Assembly: GCA_030390025.1 (NCBI GenBank)
Contig: CM059432.1
Span: 38,318,001 to 38,382,000 of the forward strand
Source: Squalus acanthias
Lineage: Eukaryota
Direction: 5' to 3'
DNA: 64,000 nt
Shown: positions 2,251 to 17,560 of the stretch, one piece after another
How the letters are laid out: the number at the start of each line of letters is the position of its first letter
How positions within the stretch are numbered: the stretch's first letter is position 1
The notes under the pieces: generated by a model
Told to the model about the DNA's origin: nothing
Database searches by the model: none
What the model saw: only the letters and a program-made list of their open reading frames with translations
Made by a program: the position numbers and the translations under genes

Positions 2251-3916
2251 TGTAAGGGTTTCTGAACCTGTGGGATTCGTGTGGCTCTGTGCAGCCTGGA
2301 TGCTAGTGCGGGTTTAGGCCTTGTTGCCTGTTCTGGTCTCCAGCCAGTCTGGGAGCACTAGACACCTGTGAGTGGTTCGACCCACTCGCCCTTACGGTTC
2401 TGACACTGGACTTAGATGCGAGAGCAGTAATGGAGAGAAAACTCAGGTAGACCCGGTTGAATGGTACGAAATGGAAAATCTTTATTGCATATTATTCAAG
2501 ATTACGAAATACATGTCATAAGCACAGATTAATGACAGTACAATCTTACACGCAGTTATGTAACTAATTTCAGGGAAACGAGGAATGAACGACACATCGT
2601 AAATGGGGGCACACATTACAATTATCCTTAAAAAACTTAAACCCTCCCCTATCAATACCTGCTCTAAACTAGACTTGTAGGATCGAGACTCATGCTCACC
2701 ACTCGTGATAACTCGGAGAATTCCGAAAACTCTGATCGGATGTTTTTCACCGCAGCACCTGATCACCCACGTGTTGATCAGGGGTCTCTGTACCCCACTT
2801 GTTTACTCGTTTCTGCTCCGGCTAGCAGGCTGGACCGTCTGCTGTCATGAAGATCTGTGTTGTCCTCGGAGTTCCGACACGACTCGAAAAATAGTCTTCC
2901 TGTGCCCTCACACCGGTTCGATAAAATTCGAAGAATAGTCTTCCGATGCCAGTTCTGTAAAACTCAAAGGTGGTCTTCCTGGGCAAGGAAAGTGTCTATA
3001 CGACCTACAGGCGCGTCCGGAGCTTACTGACCGTGGCGATACGTATGGTCTTCTTCTCTTCTCATCTCATCTCATCTCATCTCATCTCATCTCGGGCCTT
3101 CGGTTCCAACACCGTTTACCGACTTCTCGGGATGGTGCGCCCGTTTCAAGGCTTCACAGCCCGGTTCCACACAGATCTTCGCGGCAAGCCACGAGGCAGA
3201 TCCTGGCGGATCGTAAAGTTCAACAGTCTTTCAAGCTGCAAGAGGCAGAGACACGAGGCAAGCGGCAAGAGGCAGGAGAATAAGAGAAAGATGGACGGTT
3301 GTAGCTTGCAGTTATAGTGCAAAACTCTTCCTTTCCCGCCCAACCTTAATGTCTTTTCTTTTGTTAGGGTTTGGCGCTCAAATTTCTTGTATAGGGTGAT
3401 CTCCGTTTTAATGGGTTTCGGGGATATTCGTAACTGTCTGAGTACCTGTTAATACTTCTCCCATTGTGTAATCGGTCGGTATTCTCCCTGGAGGGGTTTT
3501 GGGGCTTCCAAATGTTCTCTGTAACTACCCGCTAACGGCTCTCTCATCGTAGAGTCGTGGGGATTTTGCATATTAATGTCTTTGGATGGGTTCTTGATCA
3601 CTTGGTACAATAGCCCTTATTCGCACCTGGGAGACCGATTTCAGTATTTATGTGTATACTGCAAACCCATGATGTCTCGTGTATTATCTTAAATGTACTG
3701 AGTCTTGATCGATCTCGCACAAATGTTTATTGGAACGCCATCTTGTCTGCTTGTCGAAAAGTCTAGAATGTTCTGCCACGAGGCGTGGCGGCCATTTTAC
3801 AGGCTGCTTGTGTCCACTTTGAAAACCTGACAGCATTCTGCTGAAATAAAGCTGTTTGAACGAAACTATGTGTTTTCTCCTTATTTATAAAATCGTGATA
3901 TATTGCGAATTCTACA
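2251..3916 (-). repeat. 3' LTR (1666 bp)
   Basis: Copy of 13333-14987; preceded on minus by purine-rich ACAGGAGGGAC. Confidence 0.95.
2481..2486 (-). terminator. Candidate poly(A) signal AATAAA in 3' LTR
   Basis: Plus strand TTTATT, 230 bp from the LTR end; copy at 13557-13562. Confidence 0.55.
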
Positions 3917-3928
3917 GTCCCTCCTGTT
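3917..3928 (-). promoter_or_regulatory. Polypurine tract (short)
   Basis: Minus strand AACAGGAGGGAC immediately before the TG of the 3' LTR. Confidence 0.65.
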
Positions 3929-4371
3929 GATGCGAATAACTCCGCTTATCGTATCAAAAATATTGTGGTGAGCAATATTATCTCGATTTCTCCAGATCTA
4001 GAAAATTAATCCCCATAACTTAAACTATCTAGGGTCTTTGCGTCGTCCTTATTTCCCAGGAAAAATCACATTCTTATAACACTGCAGGCATTATTTGCCT
4101 TTAAACTTACACCACTTGTTTTCCTTCCAGGCGTAACCAGGCCGATGCCTCTCGTATCACCTGTATATTCACTTTTTTTTTTATTTAGGGAAAGGAAAAA
4201 CAAAACAAAACCAAACAATCATCTTCAACAACAACACCATCACCAAAAATAATCAAAACCAACTCTTAAACATGTCGAGTTCCAAACGTAATTACAGTTT
4301 CTGAAAAAATCACGATCGATTACAACACTTCCGAGGCGCACGTGGCAAACGGGAGTGATGTCATTTTCCGA

Positions 4372-6883
4372 TTACACGGTGCTTTCGTCGTGCACGCGCA
4401 CATAACGTTCTCGCCACTCTCCCGTGTTTTCGTTCTTGGTGAGGCGTTTGCCTCTCTTACAATGTACGACCAATAAGTATACCACAATAAACACTTGGCA
4501 TACAACTAAAATGTGGGAGGCTATTCTAATCCAGGACGGCACTTCAATGTTGGTGAACAGATTCCACCACGGTGGAATTACTATGTCCAGAATGTCTGTC
4601 CCTATTTCGACAGTTTTCTGCTCTAGTGTGTAAAAATGTTTTTGTGACACCGCGACGGCTTTTAAAAGCTTGGTGAGGTGTTCAGGGAGAGGGGGAATGA
4701 GGTATCCGAAATGCGCGACGAATCGCTGCAGGTCGGTGAAGTTCTCTTTTACGGTGAGATGAACCGTGGATGGTTCAGGGATTGGGACAATTTGCTGTTG
4801 TGCTACTTGAACTTCCGCCCTGGGTTTGAAACAGAAACTGCTGTCACTCACCGGACACCGGCTACGGTTTCCATGCCGGTAGTGTTGCGCTGCAGTGGTA
4901 ACACAATATGTTCCACCCCCGATGTATGCTACCTGCGGAGGCACATGATCTTGTGCCATTGCCTCCATGGTGCAATTCATGGACTTGGCGCCAGCCGTTC
5001 TGAACCCGCACTGTGGTGTATAAAAAGGCATTCAAGTGCTGGGGACACAGTATTATGTGTGCTCCCCTGCCACGACAACCAGAGAGATCTGTACCTGTCA
5101 TCGTTTGCTCCCAGCGGATGACGTAGGGTGGAACCGCTGCATAGCGAATGTGGGCTCCCCCCTGAATGACACCAATGTTCTCTACCCGATACACCGGGGC
5201 GGGCTTTGCTGTGTCGCCCAAAACCGGCATACGTAATACTATACCCATGATAGTATGGTTTGATCATCCGCAGTCCACGGGGACTGGGTATGCTTCTGAA
5301 GCTAGCCTGAGCTGGCACGGGCTTAATGCGTTCTGAAAAGGGTGGAGCGCCCGCAGGTGTTTGTTACTTATCCAGGACGGGACCAAACCTTGTTTTAAAT
5401 CCTCCAAATTACTGCGGCCCTCGCCCAGTAACCACGCCCCGTAAAGCACGCACACCTCGTTCTGCGCAGCTTGATCGGATGCATTCCGATCTTCCCTAAT
5501 CAGGGCATTTACCGTTCTCGCGTGTTTCTCTAGTTCAGCTATTATTTCTTTTAAATGGAGAGTCATGGCTTGGTCCTCGTGTAAACCCAACCCAACCACC
5601 TTATTTTCATCTGTGAGAATGTCTTTTAATTGCGTTTTTAAGCCATTAATCTGGGTCTGCAGCTCCACGCTACCTAGAGCATTGACCACAGATGTACCTG
5701 TGTTGAAAGCAGTGAACGCGTCGTTCACAACACCCCTTCTTTGCCTCCCCACCTGATCAAAGACTTCATGTGGTGCGGTGTACAAACTTGTTTTATCAAT
5801 TTCCGCAAAATCGAATTCGTAAAATTGTCTGAACATCTTGGTCAACAGGACCTGATATAACTGTTCCGTCTTTTTGGGGCACCACTCTGGTAACCGTACC
5901 TCGGTGAGATTTAAAATCACCGAGGCCACCGCGTAATGTACCCCCTGAAATAGTATCTGGTCTGTGGGGACCAGTACCAAACCATTCCCGGGTCCCTTAC
6001 TGGTTTTAGGGCACCCTTCTTCCTTAGCTAGGACCACCGGAATCGTGGGCGGGGCTTTGCGTGGGCACGTAATGAGTTCAGTGGCATTTACTGGGATCGG
6101 GGAGAATGGGGCCCCGCACCCCCTGGTACTCGCATCCCACCTCATCCCCTGTCCGTTATCCTGCCATTGATTAATGAAAAATATGGAGATGCCTTTGGGG
6201 CAAACGTACTTTGACCCCCACATACATACATAGATTCCCTCATCCAGTTCCCACCATTTGTCCCAACAGACTCTCACTTGTCCGTTTGTCCCCGTAATTG
6301 TCCGATGGGTATTATTACCCAGTCGTTCCCACTCGACCGAAGAGTTTCTCATGTTCTTGCTCAGCTTTCGCAGCCACCACCATCGGCTCAATGGGACATT
6401 CCCACTACAAGTCAAACAAATCCGTTTGCCGACGGTGACGCTGATCCTGGGTGCGATGATCCTTACTTTGGGGCACAGTAAAGAAGTCTCTTGGTAGGCA
6501 AACCCCGATGTGCTGGAATACTCCGTTGAGTTCGTTCCCAGCCATCCTGGCCACCTTCCCTTGTGGAAATAGGTGGTGGTCTCCTCTGCCTCCCGTCTTC
6601 CGGTCCCATCCACCGCGATGGGGACCGTGTCCCCGGAACATCCGAACACCACGACATCCTTGGTGCGGCCTCGATAGGCCAATCCACATCCGATTGCCGC
6701 GAGCAATACTAGAATTCGTTCCATCCTTCCTTGGTTCCTGTGATCAGATAGAATGAGGTAGCCAGCCTCGCAAGAGTCTCTGGCTTTTGTGAAGGGTGAG
6801 CGGGTCCCCTGACCTCGCCTCACGTAAGCTTCAATGTTCGCTGGATAAACTTTAACTAATCCTATCTCTAAAACTCCCATCAT
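4372..6883 (-). pseudogene. env: Env, class I F-like fusion glycoprotein with N-terminal Ig-like domain; one stop and one frameshift
   Basis: Signal peptide MERILVLLAAIGCGLA from ATG 6724. Furin site RQRR 5735-5746 followed by a fusion-peptide-like stretch and heptad repeat, a Cys-rich region, and a TM helix at ~4460-4535. ORFs 5264-6883 and 4862-5248 are in frame across TGA 5264-5266. Removing one A from 5022-5026 joins ORF 4372-5031, giving ~783 aa from 6724. Confidence 0.88.
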
Positions 6884-7025
6884 TTTACCTCCTTAAACAA
6901 AATTAAAACTATCGACTTAAACCAATTTAAAACTATAACCTCATTCTTAACCTTAAACTATAAACCTAGAAATTTATCCTAAACTTATAAACTGTACAGC
7001 GCCGCCCGTTCCCAGGGCGGCCCCT

Positions 7026-10000
7026 TTAAATTCTGAAAAGGCTGCCGCGAGCTCTTCCCGACGGTGGGAGGGCATTGACCCCTCCCTTTGATCTGCCGCA
7101 GCCTGTTGCTGCTGCGCTGGGACTGGGCTCTTCCTGGGCTGCCTTAACCTTGAGTCTACGCCTTGGGACAGTCTGGGGACTTGACCATACCTTCCTGGGC
7201 TGGGGTATCCGACCTGACCTACGGAGAGTTACCGGGGGCAGGAATCCCAGGACCGACGGACCGGGTTCCGAGACTTCCACCGTGGCGACCTGTGGTCCTA
7301 CCACAGTCGCTGGCTCCGCCTCCCCTGGCTCCGTCTCCCTGACCTCGGGACTTGCAGCTTGTGGCACCGCCCTGCTCGGCCCAGCAGGCGGCCCTTCACT
7401 CGCAGTCCCTACCTCCCCCGAGGGCGGGACGTTCAAGGCGGGCGGCTCGGGCTCTGAGGCTTCCACCATCACGCCCTGTGGTCCCACAGCGGCTGGCTCC
7501 GCCTCCCCTGGCTCCTCCCCCCTGTGTTCGGGACCTGCAGCTTCGGTTTCCACCCTGTGTGGATCTCTATCTGCAGCCCCTGTCCCCCCTATACCTGAAT
7601 CGGGGGCGACCCTTTCGTCCTCCGATTCCAGCTCTTCCTCGTCACTACCTTCACTATCCTCATCTTCGTCGAGCTCCTCGAACTCTCCCTCATCTGACTC
7701 CCAACCCCACAAAAATGTTTCACAATTTTCCAGGATGTCCCCTTCCCTGATGCAAGCTGCTTTGCCTGCCTGTGTGCCCTGTGGTCCTACCTGGGGCTGC
7801 GAGTCCCCACTCGCAGGTTTTGCCCCTGTGGTTTTCCCTTGTGCACCTGGCTTGTACAGTTTGCACTGGTTTACGTGGAACCACTTAGTGCGCCGAGGTA
7901 CCTTTACGGCGTATACCATGGGACTCGCCTTATCTACAATGTTGTAGGGTCCCATATACAGTGGTTCCAGACTCCCTACTCTGGCGCAGTTTCTGACCAT
8001 GACCTGGTCTCCTACTTCCCACTCCCGCGTTTTGCGGGGTTCCAGCAACAGGCGATTGCCCTGATGCTGCCTTCCCATGTTCCCAGCCGCCTGCTCATAC
8101 ACCTGCTTCAGGCGCTCCAAGAGGGTCTCGGCGAACTTGTCCCTGCTTATCTCTTGGAGCTGACCCTCAGTGAGCACCGGCGCTAGCACATGGGTGGGGG
8201 TTCGCATGATCCTCCCAGTCATCACCTCGTGCGGGGAATACCCCGTACTTTTCGACTGACTGGCCCGGACCCCCATGAGGACTAAAGGCAGAACTTCCGC
8301 CCATTTTTGGGGCGAGTTCCTAGTCTCTTTCCTCAATTTCTCCTTCAGGGTCCGGTTCATGCGTTCAACAATCCCGGATGACTGGGGATTGTGTGCTACG
8401 TGCCATTTCCCTTCAATGCCCAAAAGCATGAGGGTGTTCTGCATCACCTGGCCGGTGAAATGACTCCCTTGGTCTGACTCCACAAAACGGGGGAGTCCCC
8501 ACCGCGAGAACACTTCCCTGACCAAGATTTTTGCAGTACCCAGTGCCGTAGCTGTTCGACAGGGGAAGGCTTCCACCCATTTGGAAAACACATCCACCAA
8601 GACGAGGCAGTATTTATAGCCTCCCTGGGTGGTGGGCAGGGGCCCTATATAGTCGATCTGTATCGACTGCCATGGTCCCTCTACCCTCCTGACGTGCCCC
8701 ATGGGCACTTTCCTTTTCTGGGGGTCTGGGTTGTTTGCAGCGCACACGAGACAGCTTGCACAGAACTCGCGGACCTGTTCCCTGAGCCCCGGCCACCATC
8801 CCGCTTGCTCTACCCGTTGCCAGGTAACCTCGGGCCCGGGGTGCCCTGCCCCTGGTCCCTCGTGAGCCAACTGGAGGAATTCCCTCCTGTGCTGCTGCGG
8901 CACAACCCACTGCTCCTCGCGGTACAGCATGCCTTCCTTAACGGAGAGGGTTGCCGTACTGTACGGACCCTCTACCTGCTTCCCCTCAGCAATGGTTTTG
9001 AGGACCGCTTTTAGGGCGGGATCCTGGTTCTGGACGGTCTTAAGGTCTCGGGGCAATGCTACCCTGGTGTTCCCGGGATTCCCGTCCCTGCCTTGGATCG
9101 CTGCCATGGGTCTGGGCCCATAGGGGTCCCAGAAAATGCCGTTGCGGGCACCTTCCCTGGCTAGCGCATCCGCCTGCTGGTTGCCCTCCCCACGGGGCTC
9201 TGTGGAGGAGTGAGCTTTCACCTTATGGATGAAAATCTCTCCTTCCTCCCCTACTGCTGCTAAGATCTTTTCCAGCAAGGGCTTCACCGTTAAAGGTCGC
9301 CCGTCCGCGGAGGTGTATCCACGGCGGGACCAAATGGCCAGGTATTCCGTACACGAATTGCATGTGAACATACTGTCCGAGCAAATCGTGTATGGGGTTG
9401 GGAAAATGTCTGGGTGGGTAACGACGTACACCACTGCAGACAGCTCAGCCTGCTGCGCGCTCATGGTGCTAGGGAGCTTGATCGCCAGGGCAAGGTTTGC
9501 CGCGGGGTCATAAACTCCACACCTTGTGAGTCGTTCGCCAGCAGATACTGTGCTGGAACCATCAACATAAATCTCGCGCCCAGTGGGATGTATCCTGGCC
9601 CGCAAACCTATGTTGACTTCCCACACCCCTTCCACCGAACACCGGTGGGCTGTACCGGGGTATACCAAATTGGCCGCAAGCCTGGGCTCGCAAAGACCTT
9701 TAACTCTAAGATCCATCTGGGAAAGAAGAAGGGTCCAGCGCGCAATACGCGCGCTGCTTACGGTCCCATCTTTAATCCTCCCATCTAGAAGCATCTTAGT
9801 TGGTGTGTGATGGGTGAGAAGAGTGATGGGAGAGAGCCCTGTGAAGATCGCTGATCTTTTCACAGCTCAATGCGTGGCTAAAAGGTGCCTTTCGCAATTG
9901 GAGAAACTTCTCTCCACATCCGTTAACACCCTGGATGAATAGACAACCGGCCTCAGCTTGCCGTGGCGCTCTTGGAGCAGCACAGCGCTCAAGCTGTCCC

Positions 10001-11522
10001 CGCTGGCAGCTACCTCCAGGAAAAACTCCTTCCCCCCATCTATGGCCCCTAAAGCTGGCGCGGTCTGCAGGTCCCTTTTTAACTTCTCGAAGGCTGCTTG
10101 GCAGCCCTCGTCCCAAGACCACTCCACTCCCTTATGGAGGAGTCGGAGCAGCGGCGCCGCTGTGGCCGCATAGTCTTCGATAAAATCCCTGCAGTAACCG
10201 GTCAGTCCCAAGAAGGACCTCACACCCCTTATGGTGTTGGGAATCGGTAACTCTTGCACCGACTCCCTCCTAGCTTTATCTATGGCTCTTTCCCCAGCGC
10301 GAATGGTCAGCCCCAAGAATTTTACTTCCTGCTGACCGATACGTGCTTTCTTAGGGTTTACTTTAAAACCCTTTCTCACTAGCAGCTCCAATAACTCGTC
10401 CAGCAGTGGTCCATGCTCCTCCCTTGAGTCCGTAAATAGGAGCAAATCATCCACGTACTGCACTATCTGATTGGGCTGACTAAACTCCTTTAAACTTCCT
10501 GCCATACACTGATGGAAAATACTGGGGCTATTGTGGAAACCCTGTGGCAGACAGTTCCATGTGTACTGTTGTCCTTTGAAAGTAAAGGCAAACTTGTACT
10601 GGTCCTCTCGCCGCAGCGGGATGGACCAAAAACCGTTCGAGATATCCAGCACCGTGAACGTGGTCGCGGACGCTGGGATACTCCCTATTAGGTCAGCAAC
10701 TGCTGCTACCGTGGGCGCGCAGGCGGGAATGTTACTGTTAAGGACTCTGTAGTCCACCGTGGCCCTCCACGAATTATCTGGCTTCCTAACCGGCCATAAT
10801 GGGGAGTTCACGTGTGTGGCTATCGGCCTCAACACGCCCTGCTGCACCAAGGAGGACATTGCTGTCTCCATATCGGGTTCTGCTTCTTTGGGGAAGTTAT
10901 ACTGCTTTTGGGGCCGGGTCATGGGGTCCCCATCTACGCTGACCTCAAACCCGGTAACCCTCCCACAATCGTGCTTGTGGGTTGCAAACGCGTGCATATT
11001 ATCTGACACGTACGTTTGCATGTCCGTTGGGACATCCGCGACCATAAGCCCGAGGTCGTAGCCTCCGGAAGGCTTCATGGTACACAGGACCCCTGTTTCT
11101 TCCTCCCCCGGAATTACCACTACCTCGCCGTCTTCACTCTTAGCCCCCCAGAGACAGTGATTTCTGAGGTCCACGAGGATCCCGTGCCCTGATAGGAGAT
11201 CGGACCCGAGGATACCTCTCCCACCCCCCTCCTGCCATTCCATCAGTATGCACTTCCACTTGATGTGGAGTGCTCCTAAACGAATGGATAGCGGAAGGGA
11301 GAATGCGCCAGCCTGTTCTTTTCCCGTGAACCCCGCTAATATGAATGGGACCTTGGTGGATAGCGGTGAGTCAAAAGGGCTATCTGTATGAATCACGGTG
11401 CAAGAAGCTCCCGTGTCCAACAAATAACTACCCTTCTGTTTCTCTACCTCCATTTCCACCAGGGGTCGCTTCCACGCATCATAGCTGAGCGGACACAGGT
11501 AGACGGGCTGCGCGGGCTCTTG
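7026..11522 (-). pseudogene. pol: Pol: protease, RT, degenerate RNase H (tether), RNase H, integrase and ~270-aa acidic/Pro-rich tail; one premature stop
   Basis: LLDTGAS and ILGSD (PR); LPQGFHNSP and YVDD (RT); EVAAS...ERHLLA (tether); YVDGS..AEL..SDS..KAH..GNQQAD (RNase H, ~9146-9572); HHCC, DYIGPLP, SDQGSHF, VERMNRTLK, GPY (IN). ORFs 9867-11459 and 7026-9863 share a frame, split by TGA at 9867-9869 (H*AVKR, probably W). Confidence 0.92.
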
Positions 11523-13328
11523 TCATTGGGTACTATTAGACGGGCCTGTGGCACCTACGGGGCCGGTAGCAACCGTCACTTTTCCATGCGCACTCATGAG
11601 GTTACGCATGGCTCCCAACACTGTTTCGATCTCGTCGGGAGGGATGGGTGCACTAGCTTCCCTATCAGAGACAGGCATCTGGGCTCGGGCTGCGGGATTT
11701 TTATCCCTGGAATCCTTCCAAGGGTTCCTGCAGTTCTTGCGCCAGTGCCCTGTCTTCCCACACCCGTAACAAGCATTACTTGCCTGCGGGGTGCGGTTAC
11801 CCTCCTGATGCCACTCCTTCTGAGCCGGGGCTGCGGGTCGTACCTCATGTACTTTTCCCTTAAGGGGACGTGTTCCCATACCCCTGATATTACGGTACCC
11901 TACCGTGAGTCGATTTAGGACCAACTCCTCTGTAGTGGCGGGGTCAGTGGGATCAAACCACGCTTTTGCCTGCTCTCTGACGGCTGGCAAACTGTTGGCT
12001 ACTATACACCTGAGCCAATGAGTTAAACCGATGCCTGCCACAGCGTCGCGCTCTGGTGCACCCGGGCAGCTGCGCTGGTATACTGGCCACAGCCTGTCGG
12101 CGAAAACCTTCGGGGGTTCTCCCTCCATTTGCACTGTCTGTCCCACTCTAACAAACGGACCTTCATCGTCCGTCCCCAGTACTTCTAGGACCTCATTCCT
12201 TAGTGCCTCATAGGTCTTGGTTCCCCTCTTGCTCTCGTCCGAGAGACACTGAAGGATCGAACTACCCAATGAGAATAGCAGCATCTTTGCTGTTTCCCCA
12301 TCGTCGCAGCCGTTAATGGCTGCGGTTTGCTCTATCTCCCTAAAATGTACGGAAGGGTCGTCTGACTCGGCCAGCTTCCGTACGTGACTGATCATAACCC
12401 TCAGCTGGTGTGAGCTGTGAGGCAACACAAGCTGGTTGAGGAGATTCCCTTGTTCCCCATCGTCTCTGTTCGGGCCCCTTTTGATACCCGTGACCGGACA
12501 CAACGGTCCCGGTTCCACTTCTACCTCAGTGGGCTCTTTCGTTTCTTCTACCACTTTCTCCCTTACCCAGGTTTCCGAATAGCTGGGTGGCGCGGAGGGC
12601 GTAGTGGCCAATACTTCCTCTGCTTTGTTCGGTGGGAATTTCTGAAACTCCTCATCCGCTAGCGGCTGGTGTGCTGACGGACTGATAAGGCACACCATGC
12701 CGTGCGCTTTGTTCACGGCCCTTTTAAGGTGCTCTATTTCCTTTTGGCAGACGCTATGATCGGCCCCCTGAAACTTATCCTCAAGGGCCATCTTATATGC
12801 CGCCCTAACCCCCGTTAAGCTCTCTTCCTGGGCTTTTATTTGGGCAGCTTGGCGGGCACATCGTTCCTTTAGTCTGCCCTCACTTAACTTTGCCTCAGTG
12901 ACTTGGCACTCGAGGTAATCTATTTTTGCTTTATGGTGGCTGGTGACTACCTGGCGTTCTTGGTGCAACGCATTTAAATTCTTAATGAGCAACTGCCCCC
13001 CAGTGACCTTCTCGTCCATTTCCACCTCTAAATGCCTGATCCGAGCTGCTTGCGATGTAATGACCTGGTTCGAAATTTGGACTTGTCTTTTATAGCACAT
13101 TAACCAGACCGCTTTCTCCACTGTCTTTTTGTGTTCCTTGCTATCTGTCCACCTCTCGGCTGCCTCTAGTGGACACTTATCCGCTAGCAGGTCACTTATC
13201 CATTTCTTAGTTAAATTTACTTTTCCGAACACATAATCTGCTATTTTCTCTTGCATGACATTTCGTACATTCATACCAAAGTCTAACAAACTACCCTCTC
13301 GCTGCCAGTGTCCTGCCGCGGTCGCCAT
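11523..13328 (-). CDS. gag: Gag, 601 aa (coiled-coil N-terminal half, PSAPPSY late domain, capsid-like region, one CCHC zinc knuckle)
   Basis: Intact ORF right after the 5' LTR. CYGCGKTGHWRKNC at 11730-11771; PSAPPSY at 12579-12599. Confidence 0.9.
   Translation of the reverse strand: MATAAGHWQREGSLLDFGMNVRNVMQEKIADYVFGKVNLTKKWISDLLADKCPLEAAERWTDSKEHKKTVEKAVWLMCYKRQVQISNQVITSQAARIRHLEVEMDEKVTGGQLLIKNLNALHQERQVVTSHHKAKIDYLECQVTEAKLSEGRLKERCARQAAQIKAQEESLTGVRAAYKMALEDKFQGADHSVCQKEIEHLKRAVNKAHGMVCLISPSAHQPLADEEFQKFPPNKAEEVLATTPSAPPSYSETWVREKVVEETKEPTEVEVEPGPLCPVTGIKRGPNRDDGEQGNLLNQLVLPHSSHQLRVMISHVRKLAESDDPSVHFREIEQTAAINGCDDGETAKMLLFSLGSSILQCLSDESKRGTKTYEALRNEVLEVLGTDDEGPFVRVGQTVQMEGEPPKVFADRLWPVYQRSCPGAPERDAVAGIGLTHWLRCIVANSLPAVREQAKAWFDPTDPATTEELVLNRLTVGYRNIRGMGTRPLKGKVHEVRPAAPAQKEWHQEGNRTPQASNACYGCGKTGHWRKNCRNPWKDSRDKNPAARAQMPVSDREASAPIPPDEIETVLGAMRNLMSAHGKVTVATGPVGATGPSNSTQ
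13310..13327 (-). promoter_or_regulatory. Primer binding site, tRNA-Arg(UCG) type
   Basis: Minus strand TGGCGACCGCGGCAGGAC. The plus strand GTCCTGCCGCGGTCGCCA matches, as I recall it, the 3' 18 nt including CCA of vertebrate tRNA-Arg(TCG). Confidence 0.85.
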
Positions 13329-13332
13329 TTTC

Positions 13333-14987
13333 TGTAAGGGTTTCTGGACCTGTGTGGCTTCTGTGCTCAGCCTGGATGCTAGTGCGGGTTTAGGCCTTGT
13401 TGCCTGTTCTGGTCTCCAGCCAGTCTGGGAGCACTAGACACCTGTGGGTGGTTCGACCCACTCACCCTTACGGTTCTGACACTGGACTTAGATGCGAGAG
13501 CAGTAATGGAGAGAAAACTCAGGTAGACCCGGTTGAATGGTACGAAATGGAAAATCTTTATTGCATATTATTCAAGATTACGAAATACATGTCATAAGCA
13601 CAGATTAATGACAGTACAATCTTACACGCAGTTATGTAACTAATTTCAGGGAAACGAGGAATGAACGACACATCGTAAATGGGGGCACACATTACAATTA
13701 TCCTTAAAAAACTTAAACCCTCCCCTATCAATACCTGCTCTAAACTAGACTTGTAGGATCGAGACTCATGCTCACCACTCGTGATAACTCGGAGAATTCC
13801 GAAAACTCTGATCGGATGTTTTTCACCGCAGCACCTGATCACCCACGTGTTGATCAGGGGTCTCTGTACCCCACTTGTTTACTCGTTTCTGCTCCGGCTA
13901 GCAGGCTGGACCGTCTGCTGTCATGAAGATCTGTGTTGTCCTCGGAGTTCCGACACGACTCGAAAAATAGTCTTCCTGTGCCCTCACACCGGTTCGATAA
14001 AATTCGAAGAATAGTCTTCCGATGCCAGTTCTGTAAAACTCAAAGAAGGTCTTCCTGGGCAAGGAAAGTGTCTATACGACCTACAGGCGCGGTCGGAGCT
14101 TACTGACCGTGGCGATACGTATGGTCTTCTTCTCTTCTCATCTCATCTCATCTCATCTCATCTCGGGCCTTCGGTTCCAACATTGTTTACCGACTTCTCG
14201 GGATGGTGCGCCCGTTTCAAGGCTTCACAGCCCGGTTCCACACAGATCTTCGCGGCAAGCCACGAGGCAGATCCTGGCGGATCGTAAAGTTCAACAGTCT
14301 TTCAAGCTGCAAGAGGCAGAGACACGAGGCAAGCGGCAAGAGGCAGGAGAATAAGAGAAAGATGGACGGTTGTAGCTTGCAGTTATAGTGCAAAACTCTT
14401 CCTTTCCCGCCCAACCTTAATGTCTTTTCTTTTGTTAGGGTTTGGCGCTCAAATTTCTTGTATAGGGTGATCTCCGTTTTAATGGGTTTCGGGGATACTC
14501 GTAACTGTCTGAGTACCTGTTAATACTTCTCCCATTGTGTAATCAGTCGGTATTCTCCCTGGAGGGGTTTTGGGGCTTCCAAATGTTCTCTGTAACTACC
14601 CGCTAACGGCTCTCTCATCGTAGAGTCGTGGGGATTTTGCATATTAATGTCTTTGGATGGGTTCTTGATCACTTGGTACAATAGCCCTTATTCGCACCTG
14701 GGAGACCGATTTCAGTATTTATGTGTATACTGCAAACCCATGATGTCGCGTGTATTATCTTAAATGTACTGAGTCTTGATCGATCTCGCACAAATGTTTA
14801 TTGGAACGCCATCTTGTCTGCTTGTCGAAAAGTCTAGAATGTTCTGCCACGAGGCGTGGCGGCCATTTTACAGGCTGCTTGTGTCCACTTTGAAAACCTG
14901 ACAGCATTCTGCTGAAATAAAGCTGTTTGAACGAAACTATGTGTTTTCTCCTTATTTATAAAATCGTGATATATTGCGAATTCTACA
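13333..14987 (-). repeat. 5' LTR (1655 bp)
   Basis: About 99% identical by eye to 2251-3916; reads TGTAGAA...CCTTACA on minus; followed 5 nt later by the PBS. Confidence 0.95.
14382..14412 (-). promoter_or_regulatory. Candidate LTR promoter: GC box GGGCGG plus TATAAC
   Basis: Minus strand GGGCGG (14407-14412) about 20 nt upstream of TATAAC (14382-14387); same in 3' LTR at 3311-3341. Confidence 0.5.
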
Positions 14988-15304: not shown

Positions 15305-17560
15305 AAAGAAAAATACTGAGAATGCTGGAAATCTGAAATAAAAACAGAAATGCTGGAAATATTCAGCAGGTCAGGCAGCATCTGTGGAGAGAGAAACAGA
15401 GTTAATGTTTCAGGTCAATTACCTTTCGACAGAACTGGAAAAAGTTAGAGATGTAACAGATTTTAAGCAAATACAGAGGCAGGGATGGGAGGAAAGAACA
15501 AAAGGGAAGGTCTGTGATAGGGTGGAAGGCAGGAGTAATTAAAAGACAAAAGGTATGATTCTATAAAGCAAAAGGAGATGGTAATGGGACAAGTAAAGAA
15601 ACAAAAGATGGGTCTAGAAGTGGTGTAAATGGGAATGGCAGAATCATCAGCAGCTGTCATCTGAAAAAATAGGGGCAGAGGTTATGGTCTGAAATTGTTG
15701 AACTCGATGTTGAGTCCAGAAGGCTGTAAAGTACCGAATGGAAAACTCGAGCTGTTCCTCGAGCTTACATTGAGCTTCGTTGGAATAGCGTAAGAGGCCG
15801 AGAACAGAGAGGTCAGAGTGGGAATGGAGCGGAGAATTAAAGTGATAGGTGACCGAAAGCTCGGGGTCACACTTGCGGACTGAACGGAGGTGTTCCGCAA
15901 AGCGGTCACCCAATCTGCGTTTGGTCTCCCCAGTATAGAGGCGATTGCAAGGTGAGCAGCGAATACAGTATACTAAATTGCAAGAAGTACAAGTAAATCG
16001 CCGTTTCACCTGGAAGGGGTGTTTGGGGCCCTGGACGGTGGGAAGGGAGGAGATAAAAGGGCAGGTGTTGCCTCTCCTGTGCTTGCACGGGAAAGTGCCG
16101 TGGGAAGGGGAGGTAATTGAGGAGTGGACCAGGGAGTCGCAGAGGGAGCGGTCCCTTCGGAATGCTAAAAGGGGTGGGATGGGGAAGGTGTGTTTGGTGG
16201 TGGGATCATGCTGGAGGTGACGGAAATGGCGGAGGATGATCCATTGAATTTGTAGGCTGGTGGGGTGAAAGGTGAGGACATGGGGGGGTCCTATCTTGGT
16301 TTTGGGAGGGAGGGGATGGGGTGAGAGCAGGAAATGGAATGGACACAGTCGAGCACCATGTCAACCACGGTAGAGGGGATTGCTGGGATGAGGAAAAAGG
16401 AAGACATATCAGAAGACCTAGTATGGAAGGTGGCATCGTCAGAACAGATGTGACGGAGAGGGAGAAACTGGGAGAATGGAATAGAGTCCTTACAGGAGGC
16501 GGGGTGGGAAGAAGTGTAGTCCAGGTAGCTGTAGGAGTCAGTGGGCTTATAGTGAATGTTTGTCAATAGCCTAACCCCAGAAATGGAGACAGAGAAGTCG
16601 AGGAAGGGAAGGGAAGAGTCAGAGATGGATCATGTGAAGTGAGGGAAGGGTGGAAATTGGAAGCAAAGTGAATGAAATTTTCTAGTTCAGGGCGAGAGCA
16701 GGAAACAGCACCAATACAGTCATCAATGTACCGGAAAAAGAGGTGAGGGAGGGGACCTGAGTAGGAATGGAACAAAGAATGTTCCACATATCCTACGAAA
16801 AGGCAGGCATAGCTAGGACCATGTGGGTTCCCATAGCAACACCTTTTATTTGGAGGAAGTGAGTGGAGTCAAAGGAGAAGTTGTTCAATGTGTGAACAAG
16901 TTCAGCCAGGTGGAGGAGGGTGCTGGTGAATGGGGACTGGTTGGGCCTCTGTTCAAGGAAGAAGCGGAGCGCCCTCAGGCCGTCCTGGTGGGGGTGGAGG
17001 TGTAGAGGAATTGGACATCCATGATGAAAAGGAGATGATTGGGGCCAGGAAACGAGAAACTGTTAAAGTGGCAGAGGGCTTCGGAAGAGTCGCGGATGTG
17101 GGTGGGAAAAGATTGGACAAGGGAAGAAAAAATAGCATCAAGATAGGAAGAAATTAGTTCCGTGGGGCAAGAACAGGCTGAAACGATGGTCTACCAGGGC
17201 AGTCCTGTTTGTGGATCTTGGGAAGGAGGTAGAAGCGGGCAGTGCGGGGTTGGGGGACTATGAGGTTGGCGGCCGTGGAAGGAAGATCTCCAGAGGAGAA
17301 GAGGTAAGTGGCAGTCTTGGAAACGATGGTTTGATGTTCGGTAGTGGGGTCATGGTCCACGGGGAGGTAGGAGGAGGTGTCAGAGAGTTGGCGTTCAGCC
17401 TCCGCAAGGTAAAGGTCGGTTCGCCAAACAACAACAGCGTCACCCTTGTCAGTAGGTTTGAGGACAATGTTAGGGTTGGATCTGAGAGAATGGAGTGCTG
17501 CAAGTTCAGTTGAAGTGAGTGAGGGGAGCAGAGAAATTGTGACGGCTGATGTCACGCCGG
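15305..17560 (-). mobile_element. Penelope-like element, degenerate RT plus GIY-YIG endonuclease
   Basis: Fragments KPTDKGDAVVV, YLLPKIHK, FRYIDDC, HYKPTDS, VYCIRC..YTGETKR with frameshifts. Confidence 0.9.

Follow-up and report, generated by a model that had tools for sequence, protein, structure and literature searches.

The window analysed here, a 64,000-nucleotide stretch of the Squalus acanthias genome, carries a complete LTR provirus on its minus strand (2251-14987), and the region under study is the 3′ part of the env gene of this provirus. The elements of the provirus outside env are as follows:

13333..14987, minus strand: 5′ LTR, 1655 nt, with TG...CA ends
13313..13329, minus strand: primer-binding site; the match is to host tRNA-Arg(TCG), at its 3′ end
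11523..13330, minus strand: gag, with a CCHC zinc knuckle; its TGA end is in frame with pol
9867..11522, minus strand: pro-RT-tether; an in-frame stop closes the ORF in the window copy
7026..9866, minus strand: RNase H and integrase; a long stretch of low complexity extends the C-terminus
3917..3927, minus strand: polypurine tract
2251..3916, minus strand: 3′ LTR, 1666 nt

The provirus belongs to a young, highly amplified family of endogenous retroviruses. Its LTRs differ by 12 mismatches over 1652 aligned bases and by four gap runs, and it is flanked by a 4-bp target duplication, CCTC. From the LTR distance, an age of about 17 or 1.7 million years follows at the two substitution rates used in PMC4422223, 2.2e-10 and 2.2e-9 per site and year; assembly errors would inflate this apparent age. 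The 17-mer of the primer site occurs in 2,897 exact copies in the genome, against none for a control. From 7,223 candidate copies in the 3.7-Gb genome, the 150 best scorers were 98-100% identical over 198 aa; an open frame of at least 830 aa was present in 72 of these 150, a share that is too high because the sample consists of best scorers. Loci of the host tRNA-Arg(TCG) were located by a pattern of primer-site letters and a T-arm motif, which was found at 424 places, and ARAGORN called the tRNA at both loci tested.

Several further features of the element and its surroundings were recorded. No leader separates the primer-binding site from gag, whose first ATG overlaps the start of the site (13313-13333, minus strand); in the SnRV-like viral record L021, described below, gag likewise begins no more than about 25 nt from the likely primer site. 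The gag TGA is followed by CAA (11523-11525, minus strand), and L021 has TAG at the equivalent junction; pol would be reached from gag by read-through of the TGA. The stop in pol of the window copy lies at 9867-9869. The C-terminal extension of integrase (7026-7800, minus strand) is acidic and Pro/Ala-rich and has a 74-nt direct repeat. Within the long LTRs, about 1.66 kb each (2251-3916 and 13333-14987), are a microsatellite with a pentanucleotide unit and a repeat spaced at 44 nt, as well as ORFs of 100-118 codons, which may be accessory genes. Tandem arrays with a period of about 1,623 nt that carry tRNA-Arg(TCG) lie at about 39.0-42.2 Mb of C26 in the same genome (L023, L024), and tRNA-Ser(GCT) occurs in the same locus. 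Around the provirus lie an inverted repeat that is almost perfect (99%, arms of 244 nt) and, one on each side of the provirus, a pair of repeats in inverted orientation (863-1538, and 1661-2250 versus 15489-16076). The segment at 1791-2057 resembles a GIY-YIG retroelement fragment.

In the window the env gene is broken into three pieces. The first, 6724-5267, begins with the signal-peptide Met and encodes 486 aa; the stop after it lies at 5264-5266; the second piece runs from 5263 to about 5021, where a frameshift falls near 5020-5030; and the last ends at the stop at 4374-4372. This copy is dead. Its pieces are 98-100% identical to P0001, an unbroken natural copy of 783 aa elsewhere in the genome, which was used for searches and folds. 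The first-pass annotation had assigned Env to 4372..5990, which covers the 3′ part of the gene; the gene itself begins about 730 nt upstream, at 6724. The parts of Env are:

6677..6724, minus strand: signal peptide, predicted by inspection and hydropathy
6179..6460, minus strand: likely V-type Ig domain, candidate receptor-binding head, Env aa about 89-182
5735..6013, minus strand: F2-like segment up to and including the furin site RQRR, aa 238-330
5746-5735, minus strand: furin site RQRR
5669..5734, minus strand: putative fusion peptide, assigned from its position
5393..5668, minus strand: HRA and central helices (model helices 97-141 and 148-209)
4700..5392, minus strand: Cys-rich beta region (F domains I/II and core sheet), containing the stop and the frameshift of the window copy
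4591..4689, minus strand: HRB, membrane-proximal helix (model helix 444-476)
4372..4524, minus strand: transmembrane helix and cytoplasmic tail of about 28 aa, from the model and hydropathy (transmembrane part about aa 734-755)

RQRR, followed by the peptide that the first-pass annotation had quoted, is present at 5746-5735, and its estimate of about 450 residues after the furin site agrees with the 453 counted in P0001. The reported lack of a CX6CC or immunosuppressive motif also held: CX6CC, CX7CC and ISD-like motifs are all absent from the three window pieces, and P0001 has no CX6CC. The sole CXXC of P0001 is within the N-terminal extension. Among 52 family sequences, a CX6-7CC string was seen in one (P0168), by inspection at the end of its transmembrane region. 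The heptad helix, Cys-rich beta region, membrane-proximal helix and transmembrane segment read from the sequence were recovered in the structure model described below, the last also by hydropathy. Hydrophobicity is weak in the putative fusion peptide, where the highest mean over 19 residues is 0.75, and pLDDT there is low. Two cysteines on either side of the cut are well conserved: C282, which precedes it, in 13 of 15 rows, and C425, which follows HRA, in 22 of 24. F proteins carry an inter-subunit disulfide, and judging from the alignment C282-C425 is a likely candidate for one. At the tail end (4375-4410, minus strand) are YxxV and a C-terminal S-x-V-COOH, which we take to resemble endocytosis and class I PDZ-binding motifs, respectively; the latter motif is not preserved in the skate relative. 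No separate attachment gene was found in the provirus.

Selection on env was estimated from the eight of 19 fetched copies that had open frames of equal length, using the part of env outside the search query, the query-biased part being left out. This part showed 24 synonymous and nine non-synonymous changes (ratio 0.12, p = 3e-9). Env was thus under purifying selection during the spread of the family, which indicates that it was needed while copies multiplied; the spread would have been by reinfection. In the same eight copies, the evolutionary rates of head and core did not differ significantly (Fisher p = 0.27). Four contig sets, guessed to derive from RNA, cover the whole element with greater depth over env than over pol, although the runs were chosen by env and the contigs cannot rank genes, so that these depths are given no weight as evidence. 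No env splice joint was found in these sets.

An exhaustive search found 51 relatives of the Env. Cluster look-up of 19 gave names for 17, which come from sharks, skate, three frogs, coelacanth and eel; the nearest named are those of skate and sawshark, at 73-80% identity, which by itself points to a cartilaginous-fish host. Some public gene models (P0003, P0004, P0129 and P0160) fuse Env pieces to host Niban, cadherin, zinc-finger and F-box coding sequence, and these are likely annotation artefacts or exonised proviral pieces. The family alignment comprised 37 sequences; left out of the 51 were chimeras among the gene models, pieces that hold just the head, and some of the short fragments.

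The first-pass annotation had called Env a paramyxovirus F-like fusogen rather than a typical SU/TM protein, and had named profile matches to Fusion_gly and Baculo_F as one check. At this level the claim was not borne out. Pfam Fusion_gly (PF00523) reached 9.6 bits, against a gathering threshold of 29.8 (E = 0.33), on one window piece, and the full copy had no match. None of 48 homologues matched Fusion_gly, and one matched Baculo_F (PF12259), below cut-off. A single-sequence search of the PDB gave nothing significant, its top row being an Ig protein (E = 0.53). The family profile, searched against the PDB, matched foamy virus Env best (8OZH, E = 1.6e-5, then 8RM1, 3.4e-4), and the best paramyxovirus F appeared at E = 8.8. 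A match to HERV-K Env (E = 0.02) was confined to the HRB and transmembrane helices.

Residues 236-783 were modelled from the 37-sequence alignment (pLDDT 74.7, pTM 0.55). The top Foldseek match in the PDB was hPIV3 F (E = 3e-11); 251 chains scored at E ≤ 0.001, and every row listed was a paramyxo- or pneumovirus F. By VIA, the model aligned with post-fusion Nipah F on both sides of the cut (Z 11.8, rmsd 5.3, 293 aligned), and from model residue 10 to about 420, across the cut, Z was 10.9-11.8 against F of Nipah, Langya, hPIV3, NDV and RSV. In a wide fold search independent of Foldseek, over 48,161 representative chains, the best 11 rows were F proteins or foamy Env: NDV F gave Z 10.9 (rmsd 19.1, 367 aligned), and foamy Env, at Z 8.6 (rmsd 10.0, 285 aligned) and 8.2 (rmsd 6.2, 273 aligned), was tied with F of measles, PIV5, hMPV and RSV. 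Gamma, beta and lentiviral Env were not among the best 50 rows of the 48,161 chains, an absence that excludes nothing. The first Atlas match was Fusion_gly (0.93, 206 of 256 features shared). Whole-chain TM-scores to F were low (0.3-0.4) and rmsd was high in many rows, because the monomer model mixes conformations; sequence identity to F proteins was 6-16%.

The structure alignments begin before the furin site and continue through the Cys-rich region. Class Ia TM sizes are ill-matched to a C-subunit of 453 aa with beta domains. Alignment across both subunits through the Cys-rich region is described in PMC11468914 as the class Ib signature. These data support the prediction that Env is a class Ib (F-type) fusogen, with the modelled fold of paramyxo- and pneumovirus F, and probably not a gamma/beta SU/TM protein. 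In this form the F-like assignment stands as a predicted fold, and 'F-like' does not imply a paramyxovirus donor. Nor are F proteins and 'spuma Env' the opposites that the first-pass annotation took them for, since the class Ib core is common to foamy Env as well (PMC11468914), and foamy Env was the best sequence-profile match.

Among predicted structures in BFVD, the model matched Env of WEHV-1 (E = 4.6e-9), WDSV (1.1e-6) and feline foamy virus (9e-5), with lispivirus, baculovirus and other F-type glycoproteins scoring above these three. The model of a fish filovirus glycoprotein also matches the F-type core in BFVD, at E = 2e-12. The best structural scores thus belong to Mononegavirales glycoproteins, as would be expected had the shark lineage alone captured its env from a negative-strand RNA virus, paramyxo- or lispi-like. 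We consider such a capture very improbable. The same Env family is present in sharks, skate, frogs, coelacanth, eel and SnRV; identity to F is just 6-16%, and the profile is closer to foamy Env than to any F. The higher Z to F may merely reflect the absence of an inserted receptor-binding domain (RBD).

The identity of the virus had been overlooked in the first-pass annotation. A scan of viral contigs with the window RT returned one record, L021, at 46% identity, and its RT reads as the SnRV row of the alignment in the supplement of PMC7947760. In an RT tree of 57 rows, the window and L021 fell in a 10-row clade with support of 99/93, although the SnRV branch is long (0.98); an initial set of 95 rows had been thinned by 38, which were near-duplicates or came from dense clades or long branches, and the tree held no foamy or lokiretrovirus rows. 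The L021 Env in turn matched the family profile at 94.8% (E = 4.9e-8, 343 columns), scoring 24.3 bits against a maximum of 3.1 in shuffles (206 of 500 scored) and -1.0 for the reversed sequence. In a Xenopus gene model, an RT of the SnRV clade is joined to a head that shares 40% identity with the head of a frog Env relative, so that this type of Env accompanies the RT clade in a second lineage. SnRV-like elements have already been published from cartilaginous fish (CmiERV lineage I of elephant shark, PMC4422223), and the clade is summarised in PMC4977317.

Lokiretroviruses were the first lead, abandoned on the RT evidence. Were the element one of them, its F-like Env would already have been described and the novelty would lie in the cartilaginous-fish host alone. 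An F-like Env is a hallmark of lokiretroviruses in the account of PMC7947760, though not exclusive to them, and by eye several motifs are common to the published loki Envs and the window Env. The window provirus also has a dual RNase H (tether and RNase H, by Pfam), again a feature not exclusive to loki elements. Against these likenesses, the RT groups with SnRV at 99/93, in a tree without loki rows, and the Loki-Xtr and Loki-Xla RT rows of the published alignment lack, by eye, the LPQG box common to the window and SnRV. The loki Envs of Xtr, Aro, Pma and Str, as published, run from the signal peptide almost directly into F2, and in PMC7947760 loki elements are given for none of five chondrichthyan genomes. 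A lokiretroviral identity is therefore extremely unlikely, and the element is best read as SnRV-like.

The N-terminal part of Env, which had likewise gone unremarked when the F-type fold was proposed, distinguishes it further. About 220 residues separate the signal peptide from the F2-like start. Within them, aa 89-182 contain a B-strand Cys, a C-strand Trp and a D-x-G-x-Y-x-C motif, all retained in the skate copy. Pfam Ig_3 matched the head at E = 0.076, below cut-off. The head model was of low confidence (pLDDT 37.5 overall, about 50-58 in the domain); it aligned with V-type TREM-1 at Z 5.9 (rmsd 2.9, 90 aligned), and in a fold search with this same low-confidence model most of the best 50 rows were Ig-superfamily domains covering the same 90 residues. 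In Atlas, Ig clusters followed at 0.87-0.89 after an unnamed first match at 0.90, and the UniRef name of one shark relative is 'Ig-like domain-containing'. From these several weak signals together, we consider it probable that aa 89-182 adopt an Ig fold. A role of the domain as the receptor-binding module is less certain than the fold itself.

It could instead be that the F-type core is correctly identified and the N-terminal part is a spacer, a shield or another beta fold. The weak model and scores of the head would suit this, as would relatives lacking any extension (P0158, coelacanth P0167 and eel P0170), in which the core may bind cells unaided. The number of residues before the core varies among relatives, being 19-22 (signal only), 150-240, or 518 in SnRV, and heads of different lineages fall into separate groups with no significant cross-matches. 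Such an interpretation is nonetheless unlikely, given the canonical Ig Cys/Trp/D-x-G-x-Y-x-C pattern retained in skate, the prevalence of Ig-superfamily domains among the best 50 fold rows, and the 'Ig-like' name carried by the shark relative. The domain is also under purifying selection, with five synonymous and four non-synonymous changes in the eight copies (ratio 0.22, p = 0.027). IgV-type binding domains are, moreover, known from gamma-type Env (10.1101/2024.03.17.585361). In a tree of 14 Env cores most of the branching was left open (seven of 11 inner branches), and for this reason we propose neither an order of head gains nor a donor.

Overall, we think it highly probable that the gene is the env of a young, amplified retrovirus whose RT groups with SnRV, and that it encodes a predicted class Ib fusogen likely to bear an N-terminal Ig domain for host-cell binding. 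The protein could work as follows. The signal peptide would be removed and furin would cut at RQRR. The N-subunit, comprising the head and the F2-like strands, would remain in the fold, likely tied by the C282-C425 disulfide to the 453-aa C-subunit, and the trimer would be held in a metastable state. Attachment of the head to a cell, perhaps helped by endosomal acid, would free the peptide that follows the cut, after which HRA would extend into a coiled coil and HRB fold back, bringing about membrane fusion. A single protein would in this way do the job of paramyxovirus F plus HN/H/G. Its binding module would precede the core, an arrangement like that of coronavirus spike and unlike the insertion in foamy Env.

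F-like Env has been published for foamy viruses (PMC11468914) and lokiretroviruses (PMC7947760), and the finding is consequently less surprising than the first-pass annotation held. We found no paper, in the literature searched, that calls SnRV-like or walleye-virus Env F-type, although Calcraft et al. 2024, the Viro3D source data or preprint supplements could already place them; PMC9967133 terms walleye Env just 'distinct'. An F-type envelope would extend to the snakehead-retrovirus lineage, as a third and canonical lineage beside foamy and loki. The foamy and loki F-like Envs were previously treated as separate, and the link to SnRV-like and possibly epsilon viruses bears on the origin of retroviral Env. 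According to PMC9040795, canonical and loki Env share no detectable similarity, and for this reason independent origins are preferred there.

A broader scenario is offered tentatively, as one we would not yet bet on: that the F-type fusogen is the ancestral vertebrate retrovirus envelope, kept in foamy, loki, SnRV-like and walleye epsilon viruses, that the gamma/beta SU-TM is a later replacement, and that the SnRV-like lineage repeatedly added different N-terminal heads, some of them Ig-like, paralleling coronavirus spike. If true, it would undercut the independent origins of loki and canonical Env favoured in PMC9040795. The shark-frog-coelacanth-eel family and the fold match of walleye Env make the idea testable by trees. 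The family also presents a natural series of heads on one fusion core: none, Cys-rich, Ig-like, and 500 aa. The roughly 2,900 primer-site copies, with the selection on env, show that a retrovirus expanded recently and on a large scale in a host group regarded as poor in ERVs. Such elements may be overlooked by surveys that demand the classical TM motif, such as that of PMC10435555.

Compared with known systems, the element is closest to SnRV and SnRV-like ERVs, with which it shares the RT clade and a homologous Env core. As in SnRV, gag, stop and pol lie in one frame and gag starts right at or after the primer-binding site. The two Envs differ in front of the core, SnRV having about 518 residues before the F2-like start and the window Env 237, with heads that show no significant similarity. 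Foamy Env has a long leader peptide, whereas the window Env has a short N-terminal signal peptide. The two share the core fold, which is predicted for the window Env (Z 8.2-8.6), the profile match (E = 1.6e-5), a furin-type cleavage site and a long C-subunit. Foamy Env, which is class Ib (PDB 8OZH, 8RM0 and 8RM1), carries an RBD of about 330 aa inserted in its N-subunit (PMC11468914); the window Env has no such insert, the distance from F2-like start to cut being 93 aa, and its candidate binding module stands in front of the core. With paramyxo- and pneumovirus F it shares the predicted fold over about 290-360 residues, a cleavage site followed by a fusion peptide (putative in the window Env), HRA and HRB, and the Cys-rich region, and differs in its 220-aa N-terminal extension and in the more polar character of that peptide. 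Loki elements (PMC7947760, PMC9040795) resemble it as vertebrate LTR elements with an F-like Env, a dual RNase H and motifs matched by eye, but differ, also by eye, in RT lineage, and their Envs, as published, lack an N-terminal head. Finally, its likely N-terminal Ig domain has two published counterparts, the IgV-type RBD-C found in gamma-type Env and an IgV head of host origin in an alpha-like Env (10.1101/2024.03.17.585361); those heads, as described there, sit on class Ia SU/TM proteins with CXXC/CX6CC, whereas the candidate Ig head of the window Env sits on a predicted F-type core.
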